A DNA stretch of 32,000 bases from Flavobacteriaceae bacterium (GTDB lineage: Bacteria; Bacteroidota; Bacteroidia; Flavobacteriales; Flavobacteriaceae), in NCBI GenBank assembly GCA_965224465.1, contig OZ245049.1:3390001-3422000 (forward strand). The letters run 5' to 3'. How positions within the stretch are numbered: position 1 is the stretch's first letter; the number at the start of each line of letters is the position of its first letter. The position numbers and the translations under genes are program-made. The notes below the pieces were generated by a model. That model saw only the letters and a program-made list of their open reading frames with translations. It did not search any database and had not been told where the DNA came from. This document shows, in pieces, positions 12,617-32,000 of this stretch.

Positions 12617-12632
12617 TTTTAATTAGAAAATT

Positions 12633-13663: not shown

Positions 13664-13708
13664 GTAATTAAAATTTGAAGGGAGTTAGGATGTATCCTCG
13701 TACACGTA

Positions 13709-13744
13709 ATACCAAATACAGTTCCAAGTGACTGTTTAGAAATG
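13709..13744. repeat. Copy 1 of a ~36-nt intergenic repeat (ataccaaatacaNttccaagtgNNNgtttagaaatg); copy 2 is at 22911-22946.
   Basis: By direct comparison the two sites differ at only about 4 positions. Both are intergenic. Confidence 0.6.
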
Positions 13745-15085: not shown

Positions 15086-16057
15086 ATGTCCGTATTATTC
15101 TCTAAGAAAAACAAGAAAAAGCCGCAAACCATTGCGTTTTACAACCTAGAAAACCTATTTGATACCATTGATGATAAAAACACATTTGATGATGATTTTA
15201 CGCCAGAGGGGAAAAAAAATTGGAATTATAAACGTTATCAAAAAAAAATCAAAAAATTAAGCAGTGTTATTTCTCAAATAGGAACTGATAAATCTAAATT
15301 ACCTCCTGTTTTAATTGGAGTGGTTGAGGTAGAAAACAAAGCTGTATTATCGGATTTGGTCAGTCATAAAAATTTAGCAGATTTCCATTATGGATATGCG
15401 CACTATGATTCGCCAGACGAACGAGGAATTGATGTAGCGCTGTTGTATCAAAAAAAACATTTTGAATTGTTAGCCTCTAAAACGTTCCCATTGTTGTTGA
15501 GTACCGATTCCGGGGGGCGTGATTATACAAGAGATGTTTTGTATGTAAAAGGACGATTAAAAGGGGAACTTATGTATATTTTGGTGAACCATTGGCCTTC
15601 AAGAAGAAGTGGTCTAGATACCTCTGAAGAAAAAAGGTTGTTGGCGGCAGAACTTGTGGGGTCTATTGTTGATGGAATTCAGTTAGAGGATCCTGAAGCT
15701 CATATTATAATTATGGGCGATTTTAATGATGATCCAACCAATATAAGTATCAAGCAAACATTGTTGTCTAATTCGAGTCTATACAATCCAATGGAAAGTT
15801 TGCTTGAAAAAGGAAAAGGGACCTTGTCTCATAAAAGAACCTGGCATTTGTTTGATCAGATTATTTTTACGAAAAACTTTTTTGAGAGGAGCAAAACGAC
15901 TTATTCTTTTCGTTATGCAGATGTTTTTAATAAAAAATTCCTAAAAACCTTCCGAGGAAAATATAAAGGAACTCCGTTTAGAACGTATGTTGGAAAATGG
16001 TATAAAGGTGGTTTTAGTGATCATTTTCCAGTCTATATTTATTTGAATAAAGGCTAG
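15086..16057 (+). CDS. Endonuclease/exonuclease/phosphatase (EEP) family protein.
   Basis: EEP catalytic motifs appear in order: IAFYNLENLFD, VVEVEN, NHWPSRR, GDFNDDP, SDHFPVY. I see no obvious signal peptide. Confidence 0.75.
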   Translation: MSVLFSKKNKKKPQTIAFYNLENLFDTIDDKNTFDDDFTPEGKKNWNYKRYQKKIKKLSSVISQIGTDKSKLPPVLIGVVEVENKAVLSDLVSHKNLADFHYGYAHYDSPDERGIDVALLYQKKHFELLASKTFPLLLSTDSGGRDYTRDVLYVKGRLKGELMYILVNHWPSRRSGLDTSEEKRLLAAELVGSIVDGIQLEDPEAHIIIMGDFNDDPTNISIKQTLLSNSSLYNPMESLLEKGKGTLSHKRTWHLFDQIIFTKNFFERSKTTYSFRYADVFNKKFLKTFRGKYKGTPFRTYVGKWYKGGFSDHFPVYIYLNKG

Positions 16058-16095
16058 TGATTGCTAACAAGAAACTATTTACTATAAATAGGTGA

Positions 16096-16130
16096 AAATC
16101 TCTCTGAAATTAATCAGGGAGATTTTTTTT
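16096..16130 (+). terminator. Rho-independent terminator after the EEP gene; it overlaps the last codons of the convergent CNNM gene.
   Basis: A 12-bp stem (aaatctctctga / tcagggagattt, with one G-U pair) has a 6-nt loop, and a T run follows through 16130. Confidence 0.7.
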
Positions 16131-17201
16131 GTCTTCTAGGATAATTCCTAGTTTTTTAGCGCGTTGGTTCCAGCCTTGTCTAGCAAGGTGTTGTAAGTCT
16201 GCATGGCTATCACTTTCGTCCATTATTTCTAGTCCTAAAAGTGTTTCTATAATGTCTTCTTGGCTAACAAGTCCACTGACAGAGCCATACTCGTCTACGA
16301 CAAGGGCTACATGTTCTCTCTTGTGAATCAAGGTGTCAAACAATGCGGGTATCGAGAGGTTTCTTTCTGTGACAAGGATGTCTCTTCTGATGGATTTTAG
16401 AGGTTGGTCTCCCTTTTTGTTGATAATAGCTTGGTATAAATTGTCTTTTAAAAAATAGCCTGTAATATTGTCGGAATTTTCTTTATATATTGGAATTCTA
16501 GAAAATTTTAATGCCAAGTTTTCATCAAAAAACTCTTGGATACTTTTTTCTTCGTTGGCTATTTTCATCACAGAGCGTGGCGTCATAATGCTCTTTACTT
16601 TTACTTCTTTAAAATTGATTAAATTTTTAATAATTCTGCTTTCCGATTCTAAAAATACGCCTTCTTCTGTTGCTATTTCAGCCATGGCACTAAAATCTTC
16701 TCTGCTCAATGCGCTTCCGTGCCCAGATTTCCCTATCAGTTTTGTTGTCAATTGAAGCAGCCATAACATTCCTGTCCATTTTAATATAAACACCATTCCT
16801 GTCAAAGTTTTGGCAGTAAAGCCAGCCAGTTGCTTCCAATAAGTAGCTCCAATGGTTTTAGGGATAATTTCGGATACCACCAAGATAAGCAACGTCATGA
16901 TTGCAGAGACAATCCCTACAATGTTTACGCCTAGGATATTGATGTCGTAATCCAAAGATTCTGCATGTACTCCCACTAATATGGCGCCCACAGTATGTGC
17001 CAACGTATTTAAAGTTAAGATGGCAATGATGGGTTTATCTATGTCGTTTTTTAAATGATCTAATGTTTTTGCATAGCCCAGTCCTTCTTTCTTTTTAATA
17101 TTGATAAAAGTGGGGTTGATACTCAGTAATACGGCTTCCAGTATGGAACATAAAAATGAAATAAAAATAGATGTGGCAGCTATGAGTAATAATGTAGTCA
17201 T
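16110..17201 (-). CDS. CNNM/DUF21 transmembrane domain plus CBS-pair protein (HlyC/CorC-type putative divalent-cation transporter, short form).
   Basis: The N-terminus has 4 hydrophobic helices with the SEIIPK motif. A CBS-pair region follows (IMTPR...; VVDEYGSVSGLVSQEDIIE). Confidence 0.8.
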   Translation of the reverse strand: MTTLLLIAATSIFISFLCSILEAVLLSINPTFINIKKKEGLGYAKTLDHLKNDIDKPIIAILTLNTLAHTVGAILVGVHAESLDYDINILGVNIVGIVSAIMTLLILVVSEIIPKTIGATYWKQLAGFTAKTLTGMVFILKWTGMLWLLQLTTKLIGKSGHGSALSREDFSAMAEIATEEGVFLESESRIIKNLINFKEVKVKSIMTPRSVMKIANEEKSIQEFFDENLALKFSRIPIYKENSDNITGYFLKDNLYQAIINKKGDQPLKSIRRDILVTERNLSIPALFDTLIHKREHVALVVDEYGSVSGLVSQEDIIETLLGLEIMDESDSHADLQHLARQGWNQRAKKLGIILEDKKNLPD

Positions 17202-17233
17202 AAAAATACGTGTATTTTGAACGTGAAAGATAC

Positions 17234-17267
17234 AAAAAAATCGCCTAGAAATAAGTTTCTAAGCGAT
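17234..17267 (-). terminator. Rho-independent terminator (minus strand) after the DUF3078-like gene.
   Basis: On the minus strand the stem atcgcttagaaa / tttctaggcgat (one mismatch) has a 4-nt loop and is followed by T7. Confidence 0.7.
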
Positions 17268-17293
17268 TCGGTAAAATTATTAAGTGCTTTTGT

Positions 17294-18181
17294 TTAGAAG
17301 GCGTAATTAACTCCAATTCCAAAAACCTCTCTAGTTTGAAATCCTTTATATGCATTGTCGTCATACACAGTCTGGAAGGTTAAATTTGCAGATAAATATT
17401 TGTTGATGGTCATCACCAAATTCATGGTGTAGTCCAAGTCTACATTTTTTGCTTCTTTTAAATAATTGGTGTATAAATTCAGGATGTTCTCCATCGATAC
17501 ATTATTCATCAGTTGTAATTTATAATAACCAGAGGCGTTTAATCCTATTTCATAACGGCTACTTTTTCCAGAGTCAACTCCAAAATAGCTATCATCTAGA
17601 ATCCCCATATTGTTTCTGAGTCCTTTGTCAATAAATGTAATTTTAGAAGTTAGAGGAGCGATATTAAATTTAAGATTATCGCTCTTTTTCCATAACATAC
17701 CTGGCCCAAAGGAGAGGTATCCTGGAGATAGTAGATTGGTAAATTCTTTTCTTTCTTCCTTTCCAAAAGCATTTTTTGAATATTTATATCCTTTAGAAAA
17801 CTGAGTTTTGAAATTCACAAAAGCAGAGTAATACCAATATCCAAATGCTTTTTTACCGTATAATGAATTGAATTCGAAACGGTCATCTGTTTTTTTCTCA
17901 AACTGACTATTTGCAGTTTTTGTCATGCCGTACGAGGCAATCAATTTATTATCCCATGTTACGTCTCCTTTTCTATAATTAAAGTCATAATTAATACCAA
18001 GAGTACCAGAAACATTATTTTCTCCTCCTGTTGTCCATTTTGAGAACGAAGATTGATTGAATAAAAAGGATAGATTCCCTCCTTTTGTCCAGCCTTCCTT
18101 TGGCTTTTCTGTTGTTTTATCTTGTGCAAATGAAATGGTGCACATGGCGGTAAGTGCTATTGAAAGCAATACTTTTTTCAT
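17294..18181 (-). CDS. Outer-membrane beta-barrel-like protein, DUF3078-like.
   Basis: It has a signal peptide (MKKVLLSIALTAMCTISFAQD), a WTKGGNLSFLFNQSSFSKWTTGGENN motif reminiscent of DUF3078, alternating aromatic beta-strand composition and a C-terminal F. The family call is from memory. Confidence 0.6.
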   Translation of the reverse strand: MKKVLLSIALTAMCTISFAQDKTTEKPKEGWTKGGNLSFLFNQSSFSKWTTGGENNVSGTLGINYDFNYRKGDVTWDNKLIASYGMTKTANSQFEKKTDDRFEFNSLYGKKAFGYWYYSAFVNFKTQFSKGYKYSKNAFGKEERKEFTNLLSPGYLSFGPGMLWKKSDNLKFNIAPLTSKITFIDKGLRNNMGILDDSYFGVDSGKSSRYEIGLNASGYYKLQLMNNVSMENILNLYTNYLKEAKNVDLDYTMNLVMTINKYLSANLTFQTVYDDNAYKGFQTREVFGIGVNYAF

Positions 18182-20823: not shown

Positions 20824-22722
20824 ATGAGTGATGCAATAAAACACGAATGTGGAATCGCAATGGTTCGTTTAAAAAAACCATTAGAATTTTATCAAAAAAA
20901 ATATGGAACTGCTTTTTATGGCTTAAATAAAATGTACTTGTTAATGGAAAAACAGCACAATCGTGGTCAAGATGGTGCGGGAATTGCAAGTATTAAATTT
21001 GATGTTGCTCCTGGTACACGGTATATTAGTAGAGTACGTTCCAACCAAGCGCAACCTATTCAGGATATCTTTGCTCAGATCAATACCCGTTTAGAAAAGG
21101 CATGGGAAGGCAATGAAGATAAGAAAGAGGATGTAGCATGGCAATTAAATAATCTGCCTTACTTAGGAAATTTGTTTCTAGGCCATGTTAGATATGGAAC
21201 TTTCGGTAATAATAGCATCGAAAGTGTACATCCATTTTTACGTCAAAGTAACTGGATGCATCGTAACTTATTGGTAGCGGGAAACTTTAATATGACCAAT
21301 TCAAATCGCATGTTTGACGATTTAGTAGAATTAGGGCAACATCCAAAAGAAATGACGGACACCGTGACGGTGATGGAAAAAATAGGTCATTTTATTGATG
21401 ATGAAGTATTGGATTTATACCATGAATTAAAGAAAGAAGGCTATAGTAAAAAAGATGCATCTCCAATTATAGGAGAACGTATGGATATAAAAAGCATCCT
21501 TCAAAAATCTTCAAAAAATTGGGATGGTGGTTATGCCATGGCAGGAGTACTTGGACATGGTGATGCTTTTGTGTTGAGAGATCCAGCAGGAATTAGACCT
21601 ACTTTTTATTTCGAGGATGATGAGGTGGTTGTCGTTGCTTCTGAACGCCCCGTAATACAAACAGTTTTCAACGTTGCTATTAATGATGTAAAAGAATTGG
21701 ATCGCGGTCATGCTTTAATTATCAAGCAAAACGGGAAGGTTACTGTAGATAAGATATTAGATCAATTGCCTAAAAAATCATGTTCTTTTGAACGTATCTA
21801 TTTCTCTCGTGGTAGCGATGCAGATATCCATACAGAACGTAAAAATTTAGGAAAATTAGTCTTTCCTCAAATCTTAGAAAAAATAGATGGAGATATGAAA
21901 AACACCGTTTTTTCATACATTCCTAATACCGCAGAAACTTCTTTTTATGGACTTAGAGAGGCAGCAGAAGATTATGTAAATACTCAAAAATTAGAGATTC
22001 TGTCTATAGAAAATAACAAACTGTCTGCAGAAGAATTGAAATCAATTTTGTTAGAGCGTCCACGTATCGAAAAATTGGCAATTAAAGATGCAAAATTGCG
22101 AACGTTTATTGCAGATGATAAAAGTCGTGACGATCTAGTTGCACATATTTATGATGTAACTTACGGAATTGTAAAACCCGACGATAATTTGGTGATTATT
22201 GATGATAGTATTGTTCGTGGGACTACGTTAAAGCAAAGTATCATTAAAATATTGGATCGTTTGTCTCCAAAGAAAATTGTAATTGTTTCTTCAGCTCCTC
22301 AAATTAGATATCCAGATTGTTATGGAATTGACATGGCTAGATTGGGTGATTTTATTGCTTTTAGAGCAGCCATCGAGCTATTAAAAGACCAAGGACAAGA
22401 GGCTGTTATAAAATCTGTATACGACAAATGTAAAGCGCAGCAAGGGAAACCAGATGTTGAAATTTCAAATTTTGTTAAAGAAATATATGTGTCATTTACC
22501 GATGCTCAAATTTCAGATAAAATAGCCGAAATGCTAAAAACTCATGAAATAAAAGCAGAAATTCAAATTATCTATCAATCTGTAGAAAATTTACATGTAG
22601 CCTGTCCAGATCATTTAGGTGATTGGTATTTTACGGGTGATTATCCTACTCCAGGAGGGATGCGAGTGGTAAACGATTCGTATATCAACTTCTTTGAAGG
22701 GAATAATAAAAGGGCTTATTAA
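20824..22722 (+). CDS. purF: Amidophosphoribosyltransferase (class-II glutamine amidotransferase plus PRTase domain), long Bacteroidota form.
   Basis: An N-terminal short propeptide precedes the catalytic Cys (MSDAIKHECGIAMV). The class-II GATase motifs NRGQDGAGI and GHVRYGT are present, as is a PRPP-binding loop (LVIIDDSIVRGTT). The start is set at ATG 20824 rather than TTG 20773. Confidence 0.85.
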   Translation: MSDAIKHECGIAMVRLKKPLEFYQKKYGTAFYGLNKMYLLMEKQHNRGQDGAGIASIKFDVAPGTRYISRVRSNQAQPIQDIFAQINTRLEKAWEGNEDKKEDVAWQLNNLPYLGNLFLGHVRYGTFGNNSIESVHPFLRQSNWMHRNLLVAGNFNMTNSNRMFDDLVELGQHPKEMTDTVTVMEKIGHFIDDEVLDLYHELKKEGYSKKDASPIIGERMDIKSILQKSSKNWDGGYAMAGVLGHGDAFVLRDPAGIRPTFYFEDDEVVVVASERPVIQTVFNVAINDVKELDRGHALIIKQNGKVTVDKILDQLPKKSCSFERIYFSRGSDADIHTERKNLGKLVFPQILEKIDGDMKNTVFSYIPNTAETSFYGLREAAEDYVNTQKLEILSIENNKLSAEELKSILLERPRIEKLAIKDAKLRTFIADDKSRDDLVAHIYDVTYGIVKPDDNLVIIDDSIVRGTTLKQSIIKILDRLSPKKIVIVSSAPQIRYPDCYGIDMARLGDFIAFRAAIELLKDQGQEAVIKSVYDKCKAQQGKPDVEISNFVKEIYVSFTDAQISDKIAEMLKTHEIKAEIQIIYQSVENLHVACPDHLGDWYFTGDYPTPGGMRVVNDSYINFFEGNNKRAY

Positions 22723-22751
22723 TAGAAATTAAGATTTTTCTATATTTAAAT

Positions 22752-22782
22752 AAACCTCTTGCTTCGGTAAGAGGTTTTTTTT
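22752..22782 (+). terminator. Rho-independent terminator after purF; it marks the end of the core block.
   Basis: The stem aaacctcttgc / gtaagaggttt has a ttcg loop and is followed by a T run. Confidence 0.85.
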
Positions 22783-22910
22783 GTCTAGGGAATACAAAGA
22801 TTGCGATCCGTTTTGTCTCGACAAAAATGGTGTATTTGCGATTTATATCGCTTAGTTGAATTCAGCCAGTATGGAAGTTTGTTTCTTTTTAAAGAGTGAA
22901 AACTTGAGTT

Positions 22911-22946
22911 ATACCAAATACATTTCCAAGTGGCGGTTTAGAAATG
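22911..22946. repeat. Copy 2 of the ~36-nt intergenic repeat seen at 13709-13744.
   Basis: ataccaaatacatttccaagtggcggtttagaaatg compared with ataccaaatacagttccaagtgactgtttagaaatg. Confidence 0.6.
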
Positions 22947-23055
22947 TAGGCTTCATACCAAAAAACGCAAAATTTCCGTTAGGATATTTAAATGAAATTA
23001 TATTGTAAGTTCTATAATCCTTTTAAGATTATAATTGGACACCTTGTTATTATAG

Positions 23056-24059
23056 AACTCTTTTTGAAGACATCCATTCCTCTAAAACAGTTACTTTCAG
23101 CTTTAATTTCAGTAAGTTTTTGTTAGGCAGCTGATTCTAGGTATAGCCCGTAAATACATGTTTTATGTACTCCTAACCGTTTCATAATAAGCGCACCGTA
23201 TCCATAGCAATTATTATTTATTTTGTTAGGTCAAAAAAAGACTGCCTAGTAAGAGCCTTGCTTCATTCATGCTTTTAAAATCAGTAGAATAGTAATCAAT
23301 CCTTTATAATAACTATGTAAACAAAGGTCAATAACCTCTGGGCAAGCCCACGAGGCATGATAAAGAAAAAAACCTTAATCATTTCGATGCAAGCATCGGG
23401 GAATTAAACCCACTAGTGGGATTAAAATACAGAAACACACGTGCGTATAACATTATTTTATATATTTGCCTTACGTTTTAAAAATAAATACGCCTTAATA
23501 TTAAGCCCACCCTGCATTGTGAACTAAATGGATATGCCATCATGTTTACAATTGCTATTGTGAGGATATGTGTATTACAAAGCATTGACACACGCAAACA
23601 CACAACATAGAATAACAAAACAACATGGTAAAAGCAATATTAATAATAGATGGAAAAGAAGTAAACGTACGTTGGTTTACCATCAATTTTAATCAAGGAG
23701 CAAACCCTAACGGGAGACCCTCACAGAAACCCATATTTATAGGTTTTAAACTAATTATAGAAACTAGAAAAGACCTAAATCTTACTGACTGGGCATTTTC
23801 CTCTAGACAAACAAAACAGATAGTATTACATCTTAATTCCGTTATTTTGGGAGGGAAAACAAGAAAAATATTTTTCTATGACTGTCATCTTGTAAACTGG
23901 AAAACCAATTTTTCTTCTACAGGCTCAGATCCAATGACGGAAACTTTAGAAATCACCTGTGCTGGTGTTGAAGATTCTAATTCGTCTGGTGTGTATTCTG
24001 CCTCTTGGAGGGTTACGTATCCAGAACTAGAAGTCGAACCAACAATTAGAGATGATAAT
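23056..24059 (+). repeat. Conserved 5' block, copy 1: ~570-bp upstream region plus Hcp-like codons 1-145. It is homologous to 28187-29120.
   Basis: Manual alignment of the coding part finds about 20 mismatches and no indels in 435 nt. The upstream part is clearly homologous but has indels, and copy 1 is about 70 bp longer. Homology stops abruptly after ...gatgataat (24059 / 29120). Confidence 0.85.
23461..23468 (+). promoter_or_regulatory. Candidate -7 promoter element (TATATTTG, consensus TAnnTTTG) for cassette 1.
   Basis: The motif lies about 157 nt upstream of the Hcp-like ATG. It is conserved at the equivalent position of cassette 2 (28516-28523). Confidence 0.4.
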
Positions 24060-24314
24060 ATAGAAAAAACTATTATAGAATCTTTTTTTGAAGATAAAAA
24101 AACGATGCAAAAGATTGATTTTTTAAAACCTAATATGAATGTTAATTTAGTCTTGAAGCTAAAAAACATGGAAAACACATCTATTGACATAGATTTATCA
24201 GAATATAAAGTAGGTTTTGAGCATAATGGCAATAAATTAGACGATGATATTTTAAAAGAGATAGATATTTCAAGTGATACTAAAAAAATAAATTTAAAAA
24301 CTACTAAAAAATAA
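23625..24314 (+). CDS. tssD: TssD/Hcp-like tube protein (Bacteroidota T6SSiii type) with an ~84-aa C-terminal extension, copy 1.
   Basis: The first ~140 aa follow the pattern I remember for Bacteroidota TssD. It runs: short N-terminus, L.IDGKE..V..f...F.Q....nGRPS, then ....E...D..L..W, then F.D...V.....F...G..PM...L.I. Canonical TssD is about 130-150 aa, whereas this protein is 229 aa. There is no signal peptide. Confidence 0.6.
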   Translation: MVKAILIIDGKEVNVRWFTINFNQGANPNGRPSQKPIFIGFKLIIETRKDLNLTDWAFSSRQTKQIVLHLNSVILGGKTRKIFFYDCHLVNWKTNFSSTGSDPMTETLEITCAGVEDSNSSGVYSASWRVTYPELEVEPTIRDDNIEKTIIESFFEDKKTMQKIDFLKPNMNVNLVLKLKNMENTSIDIDLSEYKVGFEHNGNKLDDDILKEIDISSDTKKINLKTTKK

Positions 24315-24319
24315 TAATT

Positions 24320-25549
24320 ATGGCTATTATAACAGAAGTAGGAAACCCAAGTAACTCTTATTCTTTTAAACCATTAGAAGTATGGGAATTTACTCCAATT
24401 GTACTTTTAAATAAAGAACCTACGGATTACGATAGAATAGAAGACATAATACTTCTTTACAATGTAGATGAAAAGGTTGAATTATCTGATAAACTAAGTA
24501 CTTCTATAAGTAGTAAATATACACTTATGGAGTTTACAACAGAATTAGATACACTAACATTAAGTTTTATTGTAAAGAATGGAACTACTGACCAATTTTA
24601 CGACGAAGACGGATATATTAAGCCTCAATTAACGTTAATTGATAATAATAATAATAATAAAGACACTAAAAATACGATTGAAATCACTAAAAATGAAAGT
24701 TTTTTAATAGATTACGATAAAAAAGAAACAACAGAAATTGAAGTCGATATTTCTATAAAATCAAAAAATGATATATCTTTTTATGTAGATTTTTATGCTA
24801 ATGATGATAAAAAGTATTTTGATGTTGAGGGAGCTTATAAAAATGTATTTTGTGGTAGAGTAAAAATAATTTACAATACTGATAATGAATGGCAGTTTTC
24901 TTTAAATGAAATTGAAAAGATTAAAACTTATGCTATTACTAATAATGTAGATTATAGAAATTCTTTTAAGAAAGATCGTAAAGATAGAAAATACACTGAT
25001 TACCACCATTGTACCGATACTCATAAAAATATTGTGTACCAACTATTAAATAATCCTACCGATTTATATCTTGGAGAAAATCAAACAAAAAACAGAAAGA
25101 CTCCCAGAGATTATGAAAAAGCAGGGGAATCAACAACTCATGGAGTTAGGAATAGACTAATAGCATCAACTTATGCTGAATCTTCAAAAAACTTTACTGT
25201 TATTGATATTAATAATAACGAAGTTTTAAATAGTGGACAAGCAGGGAATACAGATGTGAAATTAAGTAAGTTTAAAGAAAGCCCTGTTGTATATATGAAA
25301 AATAAATGCCCTAAAGATGGCTATTATATATTTATTGGAGCATATAATGATGATTATCATTCTTTTACTATTGTAGCTAATAAGCGTGGGGAGAATATTA
25401 ATTTCATCTTTATAGACCAAGTAGTTGGAATAAGTAGTTTCACTGAAAGTAATTTTGAAAAATCTAAGTTATTAAGGAACATTGATAGTTATTCTTTTGA
25501 CTACCCTATGAAATTAGAATTATTTCAATTAAGAAATAAAAAGAAATAA
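24320..25549 (+). CDS. Hypothetical protein; candidate T6SS cargo toxin (effector 1).
   Basis: A 409-aa ORF starts 5 nt after the Hcp-like stop. It has no signal peptide or T9SS CTD and is Asn/Lys-rich. I recognise no catalytic motif. A lipoprotein gene follows after 2 nt, which is typical effector-immunity coupling. Confidence 0.75.
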   Translation: MAIITEVGNPSNSYSFKPLEVWEFTPIVLLNKEPTDYDRIEDIILLYNVDEKVELSDKLSTSISSKYTLMEFTTELDTLTLSFIVKNGTTDQFYDEDGYIKPQLTLIDNNNNNKDTKNTIEITKNESFLIDYDKKETTEIEVDISIKSKNDISFYVDFYANDDKKYFDVEGAYKNVFCGRVKIIYNTDNEWQFSLNEIEKIKTYAITNNVDYRNSFKKDRKDRKYTDYHHCTDTHKNIVYQLLNNPTDLYLGENQTKNRKTPRDYEKAGESTTHGVRNRLIASTYAESSKNFTVIDINNNEVLNSGQAGNTDVKLSKFKESPVVYMKNKCPKDGYYIFIGAYNDDYHSFTIVANKRGENINFIFIDQVVGISSFTESNFEKSKLLRNIDSYSFDYPMKLELFQLRNKKK

Positions 25550-25551
25550 AA

Positions 25552-26175
25552 ATGAAAAAATATTTTTTAATATTACTCGTCCTATTATTTATATTTAATT
25601 GTAATGGTTCTAAACAAGATAGTAAAGTAAACCTTGATAAGGTTAATTCTAAAATCACTTTAAATAAAGTGATTTTAGATACGTTAAAAGTTAAAAAGAA
25701 ACTATTAACAATAAATAATTTTAACCTTTTATTGTCTAAAATAAAAAACGTAAAAAATGTAGGAGAAAAGCATAAAGACTGGATGTCTAATAAAGCAAGG
25801 ACTTTAGATTCACTTTTTCTACTTGATAATCGAGAATTTTCTGTAAAAACAATAAGTTATGAGTACAAAAAAAATGTAATATTTTATGTTCATGATTTAA
25901 AACATATAAACGATACTATAAGTATAAAGCCTTTTTTAGAAAATGCACAAGGAAAAACTAGTGAAGGTTACTTAGGGGAACGTGTATTAATTTTTGCAAT
26001 GAAAAACAATAAAGATGCAAATTTTATTGATATACCTGTAAATTGGAACTATGGCGAGTTAGAGGATGAGCTTCTTGAAATATTATATAAAAATATAGAT
26101 AGTGATGTAATAATTTGTAGAAATATAGACACCTGTATATATATTAGGGATTTACGAAAAATGAAGTCTGAATAA
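25552..26175 (+). CDS. Lipoprotein; candidate cognate immunity protein for effector 1.
   Basis: 207 aa with an SPII-type signal and lipobox (MKKYFLILLVLLFIFN-C). It is translationally coupled to the upstream ORF through a 2-nt gap. Confidence 0.75.
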   Translation: MKKYFLILLVLLFIFNCNGSKQDSKVNLDKVNSKITLNKVILDTLKVKKKLLTINNFNLLLSKIKNVKNVGEKHKDWMSNKARTLDSLFLLDNREFSVKTISYEYKKNVIFYVHDLKHINDTISIKPFLENAQGKTSEGYLGERVLIFAMKNNKDANFIDIPVNWNYGELEDELLEILYKNIDSDVIICRNIDTCIYIRDLRKMKSE

Positions 26176-26303
26176 AAAATATAGGTCAGTTACCAAATAC
26201 CTAGCTAAAATTACGTGGGTCGGTGGGGTCCCAATAATTTTATTGTTGCACTGAAAAAAAATGTAATATTTTATGTTTTAAAACATCTTAAATTTTATAC
26301 AAA

Positions 26304-26930
26304 ATGAAAAAAATCATAACATTATTAGTAGGTTTTTGGGTTGCTATATCTTTTTCTCAAGAAAAAAAAATCCCATACCCAAAAATTATTAAACCGATTA
26401 TTTCTTATAACTATAAAGTAAGCATATTAAATGGACTTGAGTTTTGTACATATAACGATGGGGATTATTTAAGAGGTCATTATAATGTTGAAGTTTACAT
26501 TTTAGATAAGACCATTTCAGATACTACGATTATTGATAATGGACTAGAAAGAAGCACTTTACGGTATGATTTAGCATATAGTAGATACAAAGGAACTAAT
26601 ATATCTTTACAAGGCAAGTTTTTTAAAGGCTACAAAAACGGTTTCTGGAAAACTACATATAAAAACAAATTAGTAAAAACCATAAATTATAATCATGGTT
26701 TAGTTATTGGTAGATACAGAGTTTACAATTTAAAAGGAAATATACTATATAAAACTACATTTGGTACTAAAGGTAATGGTAGGTTTGAAGATTATTATTA
26801 CAAAACTGGTCTTTTAAAACAAGAAGGCAATTACAAAAACGGAAAAAAACAAGGAGAATGGCGCGATTATGATGAACAGGGAAATACTAAAAAAATAACT
26901 TATTACGAAAATGGAACTCCAGTAAAATAA
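26304..26930 (+). CDS. YwqK-family/MORN-variant repeat protein with a signal peptide (immunity-type protein), copy 1.
   Basis: It has a signal peptide (MKKIITLLVGFWVAISFSQ). The C-terminal half carries MORN_2-like repeats (G.f..yY.tGlLkqEGnYkNGkkqGeW.dYdeqGn..k.tyYenG), as in proteins annotated as YwqK-family antitoxins. Confidence 0.7.
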   Translation: MKKIITLLVGFWVAISFSQEKKIPYPKIIKPIISYNYKVSILNGLEFCTYNDGDYLRGHYNVEVYILDKTISDTTIIDNGLERSTLRYDLAYSRYKGTNISLQGKFFKGYKNGFWKTTYKNKLVKTINYNHGLVIGRYRVYNLKGNILYKTTFGTKGNGRFEDYYYKTGLLKQEGNYKNGKKQGEWRDYDEQGNTKKITYYENGTPVK

Positions 26931-27064
26931 GGTCCTACAATTAATAACCAAGGGTTTATACGATACTTAGGTTTCAATGTGAACGCCTTAGTAATTAAAG
27001 GTTTAAGTTTGCGAAAAAAATAATTCTCCTAATAACTTTTTTAATCTATTGTGTTACGCTTAAA
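26592..27064 (+). repeat. Conserved 3' block, copy 1: the C-terminal ~112 codons of the YwqK-like gene plus ~130 bp downstream. It is homologous to 31009-31481.
   Basis: The offset is constant at 4417 nt and I saw no indels. There are 4 aa differences across the shared protein part. Homology ends at the left end of the IS30 element. Confidence 0.85.
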
Positions 27065-28179
27065 TTCAACTAATAAACGCAACTTTTCGATTTGATTCTA
27101 TGATGGTTATATTTTCAAAACAGAAAAGTAGGAAAACCTACCTTTCTTGTCTTGATGGATATGTATCTTACGGTCTCAAATCTCGAAAAAAGAAGTTGTA
27201 TGAAACACATCACCCAAGCGCAAAGATACACAATTTGTTGCATGTTAAAACAAGGTTATAAACAGGTTGAGATAGCAGCTGCTATAGGAAAAGACAAGTC
27301 TGTTATTAGCAAAGAGATTAAGCGTAATTCAGACAAAAGAAATGGAGTTTACAAGCATGAATTAGCCCAAAAAAAGTATGCTAAACGTCATAAAGAAAAG
27401 CCTAAAAGAAAACGCTTTACAGAAGATATTCAACAAGCAATAGAGTTGTTATTGCGAGACGATTATAGTCCTGAGCAAGTAGTTGGTGTCCTAAAAAAAC
27501 AAGGTAAAGAAACGGTGTCTATTGAGCGTATATATCAGCATATTAGGGAAGACAAGAGGAATGATGGTGATTTACATACACACCTTCGCAGACAGGGAAG
27601 GAGATATAGAAAACGTGGCTCATCAAAGGATTCTAGAGGGGTTATAAAGAATCGTATTAGTATAGAACAACGCCCTGAAGTTGTTGAACAAAGAAATCGA
27701 TTTGGAGATTTAGAGGTCGATTTAATCATAGGTAAAAACCATAATCAAGCCATACTTACCGTAAATGATAGAGCTTCTGGAATGCTTAAAATGAAAAAAG
27801 TAAGCTCTAAAGAAGCAGTTGTTGTCACTAAAGCTATCAATGAAATATTAGAAGACTGGAAGCCTTATCTACATACTATAACAGCTGATAATGGAAAAGA
27901 ATTTGCAGGCCATGAGCAGGTTGCAGAAAATTTATGTATTGATTACTTTTTTGCGCATCCATATCACTCTTGGGAAAGAGGATCTAACGAAAATTTAAAT
28001 GGTTTGATTAGACAATATTTTGCCAAAGGAAGTGACTTTACAAACCTAACAGATCAAAGAATCAAAGAGGTAGAAACAAAATTAAATAACAGACCTAGGA
28101 AGAGACATAAATATCAAAACCCTATATTTGTAATGGAACAATTATTATTTAACTAAAAGTTGCGTTTGTGACTTGAATT
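27063..28179 (+). mobile_element. IS30-family insertion sequence (~1.1 kb) with imperfect ~25-bp terminal inverted repeats.
   Basis: IR-L at 27063-27087 is aattcaactaataaacgcaactttt. IR-R at 28155-28179 has the reverse complement aattcaagtcacaaacgcaactttt, giving 22/25 matches. A single transposase ORF lies between them. I see no matching target-site duplication. Confidence 0.8.
27200..28156 (+). CDS. IS30-family DDE transposase.
   Basis: The N-terminal HTH (MKHITQAQRYTICCMLKQGY...) is typical of IS30 transposases. The DDE region includes DLEVDLIIG, ITADNGKEF and SWERGSNENLNGLIRQYF. The ATG at 27200 is preferred over the upstream TTG/ATG at 27152-27157. Confidence 0.9.
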   Translation: MKHITQAQRYTICCMLKQGYKQVEIAAAIGKDKSVISKEIKRNSDKRNGVYKHELAQKKYAKRHKEKPKRKRFTEDIQQAIELLLRDDYSPEQVVGVLKKQGKETVSIERIYQHIREDKRNDGDLHTHLRRQGRRYRKRGSSKDSRGVIKNRISIEQRPEVVEQRNRFGDLEVDLIIGKNHNQAILTVNDRASGMLKMKKVSSKEAVVVTKAINEILEDWKPYLHTITADNGKEFAGHEQVAENLCIDYFFAHPYHSWERGSNENLNGLIRQYFAKGSDFTNLTDQRIKEVETKLNNRPRKRHKYQNPIFVMEQLLFN

Positions 28180-28186
28180 CAGCTAA

Positions 28187-29120
28187 AACTCTTTTTGATG
28201 ACATCCATTACTCTAGAATATTCAGTTTTATCTTTAATTTCAGTAAGTTTTTGTTGTTTTGGCATGAAGCTCATTCTAGGTAGCCCCAAAAATACATCTA
28301 TTAAGTACTCATAACCGTTGTGTCATAAGCGCGCTATATCCATAGCAATTATTGTTTATTTTATTAGGTTAGAAAAGGACTACCTAGTTTATAGCCTTGT
28401 TCAATTCTTTCTTTTGAAAAACAGAAGAACAGGAATCTACCCTTTAGGACAAGCATATAAACAAAATTAATCAGAATAAAAACACAATAACACGTGTGCG
28501 TATAACATTTTTATATATATTTGACCTACGCTTAAAAACGGACACACTCTATCAACAAGCCCCCACCTACATTGTAAACTAAATGGATATGCCTTCTAGT
28601 TTAGAGTTGCTATTGTGAGAATATTACTATTACAAAGCATTGACAGACTCAAACAACTTAATACAACATAGAATAAAAGAACAATATGGTAAAAGCAACA
28701 TTAATAATAGATGGAAAAGAAGTAAACGTACGTTGGTTTACCATCAATTTTAATCAAGGAGCAAATCCTAACGGCAGACCCTCACAAATCCCCGTATTTA
28801 TAGGCTTTAAGCTAATTATAGAAGCTAGAAAAGACCTAAACCTAACTGACTGGGCCTTTTCCTCCAGACAAACAAAAGAGATAGTATTACATCTTAATTC
28901 CGTTATTTTGGGAGGCAAAACAAGAAAAATATTTTTCTATGACTGTCATCTTGTAAACTGGAAAACCAATTTTTCTTCTACAGGCTCAGATCCAATGACG
29001 GAAACTTTAGAAATTACTTGTGCTGGTGTTGAAGATTCTAATTCGTCTGGTGTGTATTCTGCATCTTGGAGAGTTACGTATCCAGAACTAGAAGTCGAAC
29101 CAACAATTAGAGATGATAAT
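28187..29120 (+). repeat. Conserved 5' block, copy 2 (homologous to 23056-24059).
   Basis: See copy 1. This copy begins within a few nt of the IS30 right end. Confidence 0.85.
28516..28523 (+). promoter_or_regulatory. Candidate -7 promoter element (TATATTTG) for cassette 2.
   Basis: It is the positional homologue of 23461-23468 and lies about 163 nt upstream of the ATG. Confidence 0.4.
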
Positions 29121-29375
29121 GAACCGAATTTTCTAGGATACTTTTTTGAAAATAAAAACGGAGAACCTATAGAACAAGAAAAAATAGAACCCAACCAAAA
29201 AGTAACTTTAGTTATAAAAACTGAAAATTCTGATATTGAAGTAATAACCATAAATTTGAATGACGATAGATTAAATTTTAAACACAATAATAAGGTGTTA
29301 GAAAACGACACTTTAGTAGGCGTAAGAATAACAGGAGAAGAAACAAGAATTGATTTAATTAGTATAATGGAATAA
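28686..29375 (+). CDS. tssD: TssD/Hcp-like tube protein with an ~84-aa C-terminal extension, copy 2.
   Basis: Residues 1-145 differ from copy 1 at only 5 positions. Residues 146-229 are alignable with copy 1 but highly diverged. Both proteins are 229 aa. Confidence 0.6.
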   Translation: MVKATLIIDGKEVNVRWFTINFNQGANPNGRPSQIPVFIGFKLIIEARKDLNLTDWAFSSRQTKEIVLHLNSVILGGKTRKIFFYDCHLVNWKTNFSSTGSDPMTETLEITCAGVEDSNSSGVYSASWRVTYPELEVEPTIRDDNEPNFLGYFFENKNGEPIEQEKIEPNQKVTLVIKTENSDIEVITINLNDDRLNFKHNNKVLENDTLVGVRITGEETRIDLISIME

Positions 29376-29376
29376 T

Positions 29377-30717
29377 ATGGCTGGTAAAACAAATAGAGGA
29401 ATAGCCCGTTTTGAGTCTGGAAGAGGAAATACCATGGAAATAATTTTTCCAACAGTAGTAAGTGATTTAAAATTTAACGTTCAATTTAGAAGACTAGACA
29501 GTTATAAAGGCGAGTTCGGTTTCGATTGGATGCGAGATAATTATAAAATAATATCTAAAGATTATGATAAATTAAAAAAGGAATACACACCGACTAAAAT
29601 TCATGAAGAAGATTATTTTGTGCCTTGGTTAAGTATGTTTCCTAACCAAGAGGGGGTAAAATTAAAGTTAGTGATTACAGAAATAGAAGGTACTGTAAAA
29701 GATAACGACATTATAAAACTCTCATCTAAAGACGGCATACATTTTGAACCTAACGAGCTAAAAGTATCTGAAGCCAATGGTAAAGAAATAACTATAATTT
29801 GTGAATCGCTTTTAAGCAATGATATTACCATTTCATTACTAGATAAAAACGATGAAGAGGTTGGTAAACTAAATATTTTTAAAAATGCAAATCACGAGCA
29901 ACTACATTTTAACATTACTCCTGTTCGAATTTTGAGAGGAGTATCACAACAAAGTGATAAAGATGTTATTGAGAATATGATAGATCACTCTCAAGGTTTT
30001 GGAGATAAAAGCAAAGATATAAATGGTGACTTACAAAACCTACAAGACTATTTAAATACTCAATCTTTAAATCAAGCTTTATTACAATGTAGTATTGGTA
30101 AGGTTTATGATGTTATTATAGATGAAGATAAATGGATAACTAATGACTTAATTATAGATGAAGGGTGTATATTTAAAGATGTAGAAATTTTAGAGAAATT
30201 GGATAAGGAATTTAAAAAACAACACCCTAAACAAGCTAAAAAAAGAGGTTTAGTTTTATTCTTATCTCCTTTAAGAAAAGAAGGTGCTGGAGGAGAAGGA
30301 GAAATTAGTGAGATAGATGCAAAAAGGTTAGTGATTTATCAATCAAATTTATGGGATAAAGAAAGTTTTGCCCACGAAATCTCACACGTTTTAGGATTGA
30401 CACATTCATTTCAGAAAAAGATGTCTACAGAGGATGTTTTTATTATGAATAGATTTATTAAGAAAGTAGACGATGATCTTAATTATATGATTAAAAATAA
30501 TGACCCTCAAAATCAAATTGCAGATGAATGGAGTACACGTAAAGATAGATATAAAGAATATAGAGTGTATTTAAACACCTATTATAAAAACCCTTATCTT
30601 TTTGAAAAAACAAAAACTGAAAATATCATGGATTATGAAAATATCAGAAAATCTTTTTGGAAATACCAATGGGAATCAATGCAAGATGATATAGTTAAGT
30701 TTTATAATGTTAAATAA
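29377..30717 (+). CDS. Zinc metallopeptidase-like protein (metzincin-type HExxHxxGxxH); candidate T6SS cargo toxin (effector 2).
   Basis: A 446-aa ORF starts 1 nt after the Hcp-like stop and has no signal peptide. The motif FAHEISHVLGLTHSF (H-E-x-x-H-x-x-G-x-x-H) lies at nt 30373-30405. A possible Met-turn, ENIMDY, has its Met at 30628-30630, reminiscent of M43/reprolysin-like metzincins. Confidence 0.7.
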   Translation: MAGKTNRGIARFESGRGNTMEIIFPTVVSDLKFNVQFRRLDSYKGEFGFDWMRDNYKIISKDYDKLKKEYTPTKIHEEDYFVPWLSMFPNQEGVKLKLVITEIEGTVKDNDIIKLSSKDGIHFEPNELKVSEANGKEITIICESLLSNDITISLLDKNDEEVGKLNIFKNANHEQLHFNITPVRILRGVSQQSDKDVIENMIDHSQGFGDKSKDINGDLQNLQDYLNTQSLNQALLQCSIGKVYDVIIDEDKWITNDLIIDEGCIFKDVEILEKLDKEFKKQHPKQAKKRGLVLFLSPLRKEGAGGEGEISEIDAKRLVIYQSNLWDKESFAHEISHVLGLTHSFQKKMSTEDVFIMNRFIKKVDDDLNYMIKNNDPQNQIADEWSTRKDRYKEYRVYLNTYYKNPYLFEKTKTENIMDYENIRKSFWKYQWESMQDDIVKFYNVK

Positions 30718-30720
30718 GCA

Positions 30721-31347
30721 ATGAAAAAAACAATAACCTTAATACTATTAGCACTTTATATTAATTCCTTTGGTCAAAAACTAATGGTAAAACCGCCTAT
30801 TCCTATTACTCCAATAAGTTCTTTAGAATTAAAAACAAGTATTAAATTAGGTAAAGAGTTATCTTTTTTAATTAAAGAAAAGAAAACAATTAGAAATGGA
30901 GAGTATATAGTAATGGTTAGGAAAAAAAAAGAAAAAAAATCCATCCCTTATAAGTATATAAAGAATAATGAGGGAAATGACACTCCAAATTATGGACTTA
31001 AAGGAATAGGAACTAATATATATTTACAAGGCAAGTTTTTTAAAGGCTATAAAAATGGTTTCTGGAAAACTACATATAAAAACAAATTAGTAAAAACCAT
31101 AAATTATAATCATGGTTTAGTTATTGGTAGATACAGAGTTTACAATTTAAAAGGAAATATACTATATAAAACTACATTTGGTACTAAAGGTAATGGTAGG
31201 TTTGAAGATTATTATTACAAAACTGGTCTTTTAAAACAAGAAGGTAATTTCAGAAACGGAAAAAAACAAGGAGAATGGTGCGATTATGATGAACAGGGAA
31301 ATACTAAAAAAATAACTTATTACGAAAATGGAACTCCAGTAAAATAA
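30721..31347 (+). CDS. YwqK-family/MORN-variant repeat protein with a signal peptide, copy 2; candidate immunity protein for effector 2.
   Basis: It starts 3 nt after the effector 2 stop and has a signal peptide (MKKTITLILLALYINSFGQ). The N-terminal ~96 aa are unrelated in detail to copy 1. The C-terminal ~112 aa are nearly identical to copy 1. Confidence 0.7.
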   Translation: MKKTITLILLALYINSFGQKLMVKPPIPITPISSLELKTSIKLGKELSFLIKEKKTIRNGEYIVMVRKKKEKKSIPYKYIKNNEGNDTPNYGLKGIGTNIYLQGKFFKGYKNGFWKTTYKNKLVKTINYNHGLVIGRYRVYNLKGNILYKTTFGTKGNGRFEDYYYKTGLLKQEGNFRNGKKQGEWCDYDEQGNTKKITYYENGTPVK

Positions 31348-31481
31348 GGTCCTGCAGCTAATAACCAATGGTATATACGACGCTTAGGTTTAAATGTGAA
31401 CGCCTTAGTAATTAAAGGTTTAAGTTTATGGAGAAAATAACTCTCCTAATAACTTTTTTAATCTATTGTGTTATGATTAAA
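31009..31481 (+). repeat. Conserved 3' block, copy 2 (homologous to 26592-27064).
   Basis: See copy 1. Confidence 0.85.
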
Positions 31482-31800
31482 GCGCAGAGTACTGATACAA
31501 TAAAATCAGAAGACAATATAGTAAGCGCTAAACGTTATCAACTCTATGTTGTTTAAAAGGGCTCTTTAAAAAGGGAAATAGCTGTTTTTTGGAATAGTAA
31601 AAAAGAAGATTACAGTTATGTAAGCAGTGGATTAATTATATGTTATAGAAATCTTCATAAGTTTAAACAAAGAGGAATGGAAAATTTCATGGATTACACA
31701 AGTGGTAAGAAAAGGACTTGAAGCAACAAGAAAAGTAATCAACAGATGGAATAACAGCAAAGATTATCAATGGGAATTATTACCTATTTCGGTTGTGTAA
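31428..31800 (+). pseudogene. Possible degraded gene for a small signal-peptide protein.
   Basis: ATG 31428 opens MEKITLLITFLIYCVMIKAQS... (signal-peptide-like) and hits an in-frame TAA at 31554. The same frame stays open for about 54 more codons to a TGA at 31719. A +1 frame then continues from about 31714 to a TAA at 31800. The cassette 1 counterpart lacks the ATG and is cut by IS30. Confidence 0.35.
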
Positions 31801-31831
31801 TTTAAACTCTGTCTGCTTGTTTTTTTCTACG

Positions 31832-31891
31832 TTTTAAAATAGTTCGATTTTCTCTTCATAAGGCTGCTTTAAAAATCGAACTATTTTAAAA
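31832..31891. repeat. Perfect 20-bp inverted repeat with a 20-nt spacer.
   Basis: ttttaaaatagttcgatttt (31832-31851) and its exact reverse complement aaaatcgaactattttaaaa (31872-31891). Confidence 0.8.
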
Positions 31892-32000
31892 TGAGCCCCA
31901 GCGGCTAGCGTCACGAACTGCTTCCGTTTTTATGTAAATCCAACGTTATTCGATCTTCAAATTTAATATATAATTGTTGAATTGTCAAGCACCAATTATG

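Follow-up and report, generated by a model that had tools for sequence, protein, structure and literature searches.

The window analyzed here is a stretch of 32,000 nucleotides (nt) from the chromosome of a marine Flavobacteriaceae bacterium (GenBank assembly GCA_965224465.1, contig OZ245049.1, positions 3,390,001 to 3,422,000, forward strand). Towards its 3′ end, two tandem cassettes are located (23053–27062 and 28184–31556). Each is headed by a gene for a protein of 229 amino acids (aa) resembling Hcp/TssD, the tube protein of type VI secretion systems (T6SS), here those of subtype iii (T6SSiii). A large protein and one or two small proteins with hydrophobic N-termini are encoded directly downstream. 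An IS30-family insertion element, which an earlier reading of the sequence alone did not mention, lies between the cassettes (27063–28179). Seven cassette open reading frames (ORFs) were mapped, named HcpA, A2, A3, A4, HcpB, B2 and B3, all on the + strand. The features of the region are the following.

23053–23624, + strand: leader 1, non-coding, 5′ of hcpA, with TATATTTG at 23461–23468
23625–24314, + strand: HcpA, 229 aa, with a TssD/Hcp N-terminal domain (aa 1 to ~131), a disordered linker and a 92-aa C-terminal domain (CTD; nt 24036–24311)
24320–25549, + strand: A2, 409 aa, putative effector with an Ig-like beta-sandwich (aa 1–185) and a C-terminal alpha/beta domain
25552–26175, + strand: A3, 207 aa, putative cognate immunity lipoprotein for A2
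26304–26930, + strand: A4, 208 aa, signal-peptide protein with MORN-like repeats, paralogue of B3
26931–27062, + strand: tail module 1, non-coding sequence and the start of a small signal-peptide ORF, interrupted by IS30
27063–28179, + strand: IS30-family element, transposase at 27152–28156
28184–28685, + strand: leader 2, with TATATTTG at 28516–28523
28686–29375, + strand: HcpB, 229 aa, with a TssD N-terminal domain and a CTD (nt 29097–29372)
29377–30717, + strand: B2, 446 aa, putative metzincin-type zinc metallopeptidase effector with an N-terminal tag of ~28 aa, GIARFESGRGNTMEIIFP
30721–31347, + strand: B3, 208 aa, putative cognate periplasmic immunity protein with MORN-like repeats
31348–31556, + strand: tail module 2 with an intact 42-aa signal-like ORF (31428–31556), read from the sequence
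31560–31800, + strand: degraded C-terminus of a B2-like effector (…MENFMDY…, MENFMDYTSGKK), frameshifted, detected by blastx

Both cassettes are built by the same gene grammar. The stop codon of the Hcp gene and the start of the second gene are separated by 5 nt (HcpA to A2) and 1 nt (HcpB to B2), and the third gene follows after 2 nt (A2 to A3) and 3 nt (B2 to B3). A4 is set apart from A3 by 128 nt. Hydrophobic N-termini are present in A3, A4 and B3, but not in A2 and B2; the maximal Kyte-Doolittle score over 12 aa within the first 32 residues is 2.0–3.3 in the former and 1.3–1.4 in the latter. The G+C content of the island is 25–30%, that of the upstream DNA 33–40%, and a purF-like gene directly precedes the island. 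No gene for a T6SS structural protein was found in the 32-kb window, the remaining genes of which encode an SprB-like adhesin, a PorP/SprF protein and housekeeping functions. The sequence-only reading had described two tandem cassettes with gaps of 1–5 and 2–3 nt, large proteins lacking a signal peptide that precede partners carrying one, and a window free of structural genes. All three descriptions agree with the ORF map and the hydrophobicity scores. It had also taken the 229-aa proteins for TssD/Hcp homologues and had advised a search with the TssD profile and a structure prediction, and both analyses bore out this assignment, with the fold taken from a model.

HcpA and HcpB are TssD/Hcp proteins by profile match and by fold, the latter in a single-chain model. 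The TssD model of Pfam (PF17642) matches HcpA with 85.4 bits and HcpB with 84.8 bits (cut-off 25.8), covering aa 2–128 and the model positions 3–127/128. A canonical TssD of 129 aa from Tamlana (locus L014) scores higher on the same model (163 bits). The AF2 model of HcpA has a mean predicted local distance difference test score (pLDDT) of 75.7, with only 61–82 in the N-terminal domain and ~90 in the CTD. Residues 1–128 of this model were compared with the PDB by Foldseek. The best matches were 8gra_B (template modeling score, TM, 0.83), 6bdc (0.82), which is Hcp1 of Flavobacterium johnsoniae, and 7yw0 (0.84), which is Hcp5 of Bacteroides fragilis, with E-values of 1e-7 to 1e-6. The tube proteins of AFP, PVC and phages appeared low in the list (ranks 39–50), and tubes of extracellular contractile injection systems (eCIS) reached a TM of ~0.5.

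The part distinguishing these proteins from a canonical TssD is the CTD. In the AF2 model, residues 129–145 of HcpA form a disordered linker, and residues 149–229 are confidently predicted as a beta-sandwich of six to seven strands. No Pfam match and no catalytic motif were found in the CTD. HcpA and HcpB are ~97% identical over residues 1–145, while their CTDs have only 35% identity. Homologues of the whole protein number 64, nearly all of ~228–237 aa. The named ones belong to Flavobacteriaceae (Olleya, Tenacibaculum, Tamlana, Psychroserpens, Mesonia and Gangjinia, with Aquimarina and Ulvibacter among the related loci) and in NCBI mostly carry the label 'type VI secretion system tube protein TssD'. 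When 1.84 billion proteins were searched with a profile restricted to the CTD, 198 representative clusters matched, mostly at the C-terminus of proteins of ~230 aa. At least ten genes of the TssD family are present in the source genome itself, one of which encodes P0096, a fused effector that is intact.

Cassettes of this kind occur in related bacteria. A contig scan with one genome per species yielded 42 loci in ~15 genomes, all of other species; the best identity was 66% over a short match and at most 58% over longer matches. ORFs of these loci were called and clustered. In 22 of the 23 full-length TssD-CTD genes from these ~15 Flavobacteriaceae genomes, a large protein of diverse sequence (268–694 aa) starts at −11 to +12 nt and is followed by a small protein. 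A hydrophobic N-terminus was present in none of the 22 effectors encoded by second genes and in 20 of the 22 products of third genes, which carry a signal peptide or a lipoprotein signal or span the membrane several times. Third-gene families are often present in several tandem copies. This gene order is far beyond chance.

In three genomes, cassettes adjoin genes for ClpV, TssB, TssC (PF17541, 804 bits), TssF and the gp25-like TssE. These loci belong to Ulvibacter (L031), to a metagenome-assembled Flavobacteriaceae genome (L035) and to Tamlana (L014). In L014, the T6SSiii core and the cassettes stand beside the canonical TssD, which identifies the extended Hcps as specialized paralogues of the T6SSiii tube protein. 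The same locus of Tamlana sp. 2_MG-2023 contains two TssB/TssC pairs within 17 kb (197–2063 and 15695–17450, TssC of 450 and 431 aa), which flank effector cassettes. From this arrangement, the locus seems to contain either two separate T6SSiii sheath gene sets or one set that was duplicated.

B2 carries the zinc-binding motif HEISHVLGLTH at aa 333–343 (pattern HEXXHXXGXXH) and a Met-turn, ENIMDY, with M418. By these motifs, B2 is metzincin-like, and it stands outside every curated family; a sequence comparison with the PDB gave no match. A total of 171 homologues was found. Among the 120 listed, ~25 are fused to an N-terminal TssD, nine are fused to a PAAR-like DUF4280 and the rest are stand-alone proteins. 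P0096, the fused protein from the same genome, is a TssD-fused homologue with 75% identity to B2. Judged from these architectures, the mixture of fused and stand-alone forms is a classic signature of a polymorphic T6SS toxin. TssD-fused large proteins of 628–674 aa, i.e. evolved Hcps, were also observed in Bizionia and another Flavobacteriaceae genome (L013_1, L015_10, L017_13 and L028_15). They are followed by arrays of a family of ~200 aa (cluster C2, 13 members), and L015_10 and L017_13 have a region in common with residues 27–346 of B2.

The putative partner of B2, B3, has a signal-like N-terminus. Genes of the B3 family follow B2 homologues in L023, L032 and L041, and a faint MORN_2 match was obtained for the gene that follows the B2 homologue of L047. 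A4 is 64% identical to B3 overall, with ~98% identity at the nucleotide level in the C-terminal half, and shows weak matches to the LIC20035 family and to MORN_2. It is probably an orphan immunity gene. The segment 31560–31800 matched aa ~433–556 of the TssD-fused B2 homologues L041_9, L032_9 and L023_2 in blastx (E 7e-9 to 3e-5) and looks like a displaced orphan toxin end.

A2 is less readily classified. Its 27 homologues are all unannotated Flavobacteriaceae proteins. The AF2 model (pLDDT 80.5) consists of the Ig-like sandwich and the alpha/beta domain, and Foldseek searches with the full model returned PapD/FimC-like and complement-like structures, all of them aligned to the N-terminal Ig-like domain. 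In the predicted C-terminal domain, C231 is located at the start of a helix (230–242), and H347 and D366 lie on two strands (347–356 and 359–366). The three residues are kept in every homologue with this C-terminal domain. Conserved residues and predicted structure suggest that the domain is probably a Cys-His-Asp hydrolase. The arrangement was compared with that of papain-like and NlpC/P60-type hydrolases, in which the catalytic Cys opens a helix and His (and Asp) follow on beta-strands. P0094 from Tenacibaculum sp. SDUM215027 (367 aa) combines an Ig-like N-terminal domain of the A2 type (56% identical) with an unrelated C-terminal domain, which is read from the alignment as toxin-domain swapping within the A2 family. 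A3 begins with a hydrophobic stretch (…LLFIFNC) ending in Cys17 and looks like a lipoprotein. Its homologues follow A2 homologues, with four tandem copies in L005. A single A3-family copy in L014 is located beside an orphan C-terminal fragment of A2. The pairs A2/A3 and B2/B3 fit the effector-immunity layout, as a protein lacking a Sec signal is followed by a small, apparently exported protein and the pairing is kept across genomes.

A possible function of the CTD emerged from the comparison of fused and split toxins. Twenty-eight B2 homologues fused to TssD or DUF4280 were examined. Their B2-like part begins at B2 residue 18–38, mostly at 28–31, in every case, and no CTD match was found in any of them. 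Since the CTD and the first ~28 effector residues are both missing from the fused forms, the split form amounts to the fused form with two extra pieces. Stand-alone B2 homologues consist of a common body preceded by one of at least five alternative N-terminal tags of ~25 aa. Across 22 cassettes, CTD identity is 60.6% in pairs with effectors of the same family versus 33.2% in other pairs (0 of 5000 permutations), while the identity of the Hcp N-terminal domain is 67.1% versus 66.5%. When only pairs with otherwise unrelated effectors are considered, more similar CTDs still go with more similar effector N-termini (first 32 aa; rho 0.20; 17 of 2000 permutations). The identity of the Hcp N-terminal domain does not correlate with these 32 residues.

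Individual cases follow the same pattern. B2 and the unrelated toxin L001_6, the immunity gene of which encodes a membrane protein, have the tag N[RY]GIA[RS]FE[SC]GRGNTM.I.FP in common, and the CTDs of their Hcps are 52% identical. The common sequence ends at a boundary near effector residue 28 in unrelated toxins. For B2-family effectors, the CTD type was predicted beforehand from the tag type and then looked up for four further proteins. Effectors with tag type 1 (P0097 and P0129) are preceded by CTDs that are closest to HcpB (59%) and L001_5 (47%). With tag type 2 (P0145 and P0111), the two preceding CTDs have each other and L007_6 as nearest relatives; the effector downstream of L007_6 is an unrelated toxin that also bears tag 2. 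In these sequence comparisons the CTD type tracks the tag, not the toxin body, and we infer a non-covalent docking pair from this relation. The 92-aa CTD would then be a cargo-docking adaptor that recognizes an exchangeable N-terminal tag of ~25–30 aa on otherwise unrelated effectors. This reading is tentative, held with slightly less than even confidence.

The two cassettes are framed by nearly identical sequences. The 5′ arm, coding for the Hcp N-terminal domain, comprises 23601–24050 and 28662–29110 and is 91–100% identical in a sliding profile, with a dip to 86% at ~23691–23780. The 3′ arm (26590–27062 and 31007–31480) is 93–100% identical within the gene and 83–91% identical in the ~130 nt downstream. 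Between the arms lies a variable core of ~55% identity, to which the CTD, effector and immunity gene belong, together with the N-terminal half of the MORN-like gene. Near-identical arms around a divergent core explain cassette swapping, and the term 'swappable', which the earlier reading had used for the cassettes, is supported. The leaders have ~78% identity and are thus more diverged than the arms, which indicates selection or gene conversion on the arms. Homologous recombination would bring in new cassettes, with one crossover in the conserved 5′ arm, i.e. the coding sequence of the Hcp N-terminal domain, and the other in the 3′ arm, formed by the C-terminal half of the MORN-like immunity gene and downstream sequence.

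Several fragments are read as debris of such exchanges: the B2-like remnant at 31560–31800, the extra immunity gene A4, the effector fragment in L014, 5′-truncated Hcp-CTD ORFs and truncated TssD copies. The 5′-truncated ORFs, found repeatedly in databases, encode ~125–130 aa, comprising the last strand of the TssD barrel and the CTD, directly 5′ of an effector (L046 140–523; P0239, P0245, P0250, P0262 and P0278). They are probably hcp remnants of recombination, but could alternatively be stand-alone adaptors. In Aquimarina latercula (L044; 5846–6733 and 1797–3047), a Rep_1 replication gene and a gene with Peptidase_M78 and Mrr_cat matches flank a cassette, which hints that some cassettes ride on mobile elements.

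With high probability, the region is an auxiliary, 'orphan' T6SSiii cargo island with two paralogous cassettes, each providing a specialized Hcp/TssD, an antibacterial effector and a periplasm-targeted immunity protein. In the proposed mechanism, the Hcp N-terminal domain presumably allows incorporation into an Hcp ring at the tube tip or close to it, the tube being built by core proteins from another part of the genome. The CTD would bind the tag, i.e. the first ~25–30 residues of the effector encoded directly downstream, so that a non-covalent contact would take the place of the covalent fusion of Hcp and effector seen in homologues. The effectors would be made in the cytoplasm and secreted with the tube; A2 and B2 would most likely act in the periplasm of the target cell. 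The signal-peptide proteins B3 and A3 would neutralize B2 and A2, respectively, in kin cells. The sequence-only reading had already proposed effector-immunity modules of the T6SSiii type. The tight coupling and its recurrence in relatives argue for the former part, and the core genes adjoining the relatives' cassettes as well as the fusions of B2 homologues to TssD or PAAR-like domains argue for the latter.

Related principles have been described. In the T6SSiii of Bacteroidales (Hcp1-Hcp2-Bte1 of B. fragilis), minor Hcps co-segregate with the type of the adjacent effector and were interpreted as effector recognition particles (San-Miguel et al., J Biol Chem 2026, PMC13213661). These minor Hcps are single-domain proteins of ~15–16 kDa, form heterohexamers and are encoded in variable regions of the main T6SS locus (PMC13213661). 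The subtype and the position of a specialized Hcp paralogue just 5′ of an effector-immunity pair agree with the cassettes analyzed here. In contrast to Bacteroidales, each cassette here has a single Hcp of ~229 aa with an extra beta-sandwich of 92 aa, the co-segregation with the effector is found only in the CTD and not in the Hcp barrel, and the cassettes are orphans scattered on the chromosome (at most 11 hits per genome) with no core genes in the window.

Hcp-ET or 'evolved' Hcps are summarized in the same article as carrying covalently fused C-terminal toxin domains (Ma et al., Virulence 2017, as cited in PMC13213661). HcpA and HcpB resemble them in having a C-terminal extension and an immunity gene downstream, and the clade contains such fusions among the B2 homologues (P0096, L023_2, L032_9 and L041_9). 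Unlike in Hcp-ET, the extension of HcpA and HcpB is a non-toxin sandwich, and the toxin is encoded by a separate ORF 1–5 nt downstream. Orphan hcp modules of Proteobacteria load cargo such as Tse2 and Tce1 into the lumen, with recognition via the inner surface of the ring (PMC13323088). Orphan hcp or hcp-vgrG modules, e.g. the auxiliary clusters of Vibrio, are likewise remote islands with the order hcp-effector-immunity, in which Hcp serves as chaperone and carrier of the adjacent effector. They belong to T6SSi, however, their Hcp has no extra domain, and no exchangeable N-terminal tag has been described for them.

Polymorphic toxin systems (MIX, FIX, WHIX, PAAR/Rhs and CdiA-CT orphan arrays) also combine one toxin body with alternative N-terminal delivery modules, keep displaced toxin fragments and immunity arrays downstream, and recombine at conserved boundaries. 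The delivery module found here differs in being only ~25–30 residues long and in occurring in several types, each tied to a CTD type of the Hcp. Profile searches detected none of the named marker domains in the cassette proteins. The island is of an ordinary kind, an auxiliary T6SS effector-immunity island in a little-studied lineage; its twist is the adaptor appended to Hcp together with the exchangeable effector tag. Extended Hcps heading swappable cassettes in Flavobacteriia had been presented as not known to be described in the sequence-only reading. Full-text literature searches turned up neither the Flavobacteriaceae TssD-CTD family nor the effector tag. The principle of Hcp-effector co-segregation is published for Bacteroidales, and NCBI already names these proteins TssD, so that the novelty is narrower than had been implied.

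Several observations weigh against the proposed reading. T6SSiii core genes are documented for the relatives only, not for the source genome, which contributed no protein to the 90%-identity clusters of the relatives' TssC, TssB, ClpV and TssD. The C-terminal domain of A2 gave no Pfam, NCBIfam or PDB match with the full protein, a profile or a domain-only profile, and the activity of A2 is read only from conserved residues and predicted structure. All peptidase-family matches of B2 were below the cut-off, given in brackets: Reprolysin_5 at 20.3 bits (27), Peptidase_M10 at 18.8 (24), Peptidase_M43 at 17.3 (23) and TIGR03952 at 17.3 (208). No structural match to the CTD itself is among the top 50 Foldseek hits, all of which cover the N-terminal domain. 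As an alternative, the island would deliver effectors by T6SSiii, while the CTD would be no adaptor but could be a decoration for ring stacking, stability or contact with the target surface. The effector would then be loaded classically in the Hcp lumen or via VgrG/PAAR, and the co-variation would be due to linkage only. CTD and tag are contiguous on the DNA, and co-inheritance of one recombination block could yield the co-variation. The correlation among unrelated effectors is modest, and CTD similarity is not clearly raised for two tags: type 4 (P0147) is ambiguous, with the predicted CTD partner not being the best match, and the 'NPSNS'-type tag of A2 shows 35% CTD identity to L009_9 against a background of 33%. 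A two-domain effector of ~310 aa fits into the lumen of two stacked Hcp rings of P. aeruginosa (PMC13323088), and the modeled layout of A2, a beta-sandwich followed by an alpha/beta domain, is comparable. The CTD profile also matches a few non-TssD proteins, e.g. those with OmpA and PG_binding domains, so that the CTD is not an exclusive T6SS module. Three results speak against this alternative. The 28 fused B2 homologues lack tag and CTD together, as expected if both substitute for a covalent link; the sequence boundary recurs near residue 28 in unrelated toxins; and the CTD clusters follow the alternative tags within a single effector family. A CTD without adaptor function is therefore regarded as unlikely, though as the most serious of the alternatives.

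The remaining explanations concern the island as a whole. Delivery of the large proteins to eukaryotes or for nutrient acquisition, with the signal-peptide proteins as accessory factors, is improbable. A2 belongs to no recognizable toxin family, metzincins are common in host-directed virulence, and 'EcxA zinc-binding domain' occurs in the UniRef names of some B2 homologues. The third gene, however, is strictly coupled to the effector family across genomes and recurs in tandem paralogue arrays and in orphan pairs of effector fragment and immunity gene, which are hallmarks of interbacterial effector-immunity systems; the export or membrane location of 20 of 22 third-gene products matches the site of self-protection. 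At a similarly low, slightly lower probability, the cassettes may be relics without function in secretion, kept as immunity islands or as decaying mobile DNA in a genome that lost, or never had, the T6SSiii core. The lack of core genes within 32 kb, the IS30 insertion, the truncated small ORF and the degraded effector fragment would suit such decay, as would three truncated TssD paralogues of the same genome (P0064, 126 aa; P0400, 154 aa; P0067, 57 aa). Yet all seven cassette ORFs are intact and tightly spaced. The Hcp N-terminal domains are 97% identical as proteins, against ~78% for the leaders, which points to ongoing selection or gene conversion. At least ten TssD-family genes, the intact P0096 among them, would be hard to maintain without a machine, and related genomes with the Hcp-CTD family carry the T6SSiii core; a missing core is for these reasons unlikely. 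The sequence-only reading had added that the Hcp-like proteins would belong to something genuinely new if the genome were devoid of T6SSiii, and the findings in relatives make this branch unlikely as well. Least probable is that the Hcp-like proteins form the tube of another contractile injection system, i.e. an eCIS, a tailocin or a prophage tail, with the downstream proteins as payloads. Hcp, phage and eCIS tube proteins do have a common fold, AFP, PVC and phage tubes appear in the Foldseek list, and 'phage tail protein' is the NCBI name of some canonical TssDs in this clade. The TM values nevertheless clearly favor the T6SSiii Hcps, the Pfam match is to a Bacteroidota-specific TssD model, and the relatives' neighboring genes encode the T6SS proteins named above, with no phage structural genes among the proteins scanned. 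The same toxin is moreover found fused to the PAAR-like DUF4280.

To our knowledge, the selection of cargo effectors and their loading onto Hcp is an open question for T6SS in general, and almost nothing is known about cargo loading in the Bacteroidota-type T6SS outside the gut Bacteroidales. The B2 family represents a natural experiment, in which the same toxin occurs fused to Hcp, fused to a PAAR-like domain, or split and provided with CTD and tag. If CTD and tag are a docking pair, the tag would be a short, transferable and type-coded T6SSiii secretion signal that is open to tag-swap tests. Large toxins (270–690 aa) would ride the tube without covalent fusion, and a toxin could be re-addressed by a tag swap. 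Recombination at two conserved arms would account for the use of one machine by dozens of unrelated toxins. An effector-finding rule for marine Flavobacteriaceae would also follow, namely an ORF starting within ~12 nt after a TssD of ~230 aa. The analysis also flags two uncharacterized toxin families, one represented by A2 and without any known domain, the other composed of divergent metzincins.

The sequence-only reading had assigned a conserved leader with a TAnnTTTG element to each cassette. The similarity of the two leaders and the presence of TATATTTG in both, 164 or 170 nt 5′ of the ATG, were verified. As a family-wide promoter element the motif was rejected, since only 4 of 21 other related hcp genes have it upstream; it is weak evidence and was given no weight. 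A blastn search revealed no conservation of the leaders in other genomes, and blastx gave no match to proteins of related loci. The idea, formed on reading the sequence, that the leaders are relics of a reverse-strand gene was not supported. An Rfam scan of 22700–32000 returned no leader RNA family, only sub-threshold matches of terminator-like hairpins. A sigma-70 promoter scan, the consensus of which is unsuited to Bacteroidota, showed no enrichment (49 sites versus 51.5 expected).

The IS30 transposase matches NF033563 with 290.7 bits (cut-off 80). The element ends in inverted repeats of 25 nt (27063–27087 and 28155–28179) with 88% complementarity. This intact element sits in the signal-peptide region of the small ORF 3′ of the MORN-like gene, and the insertion point is the exact junction of tail module 1 and leader 2. 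Tail module 1 (26931–27062) is 89% identical to 31348–31481. A possible solo sequence resembling an IS30 end (…AGTTGAATTCAGCC) is located near 22850, ~200 nt 5′ of leader 1, a candidate from reading only.

An intergenic repeat of 39 nt with 90% identity is present 5′ of leader 1 (22908–22946) and 3′ of the PorP/SprF gene (13706–13744). The housekeeping proteins of the window are singletons in clustering at 90% identity, and three PorP/SprF paralogues occur in the source genome at this identity or above. The window positions 20–13568 encode an SprB-repeat protein of 4198 aa with a CHU_C type-B sorting domain of the type IX secretion system, followed by the PorP/SprF gene; the two form a gliding-motility or adhesin pair typical of Flavobacteriia.

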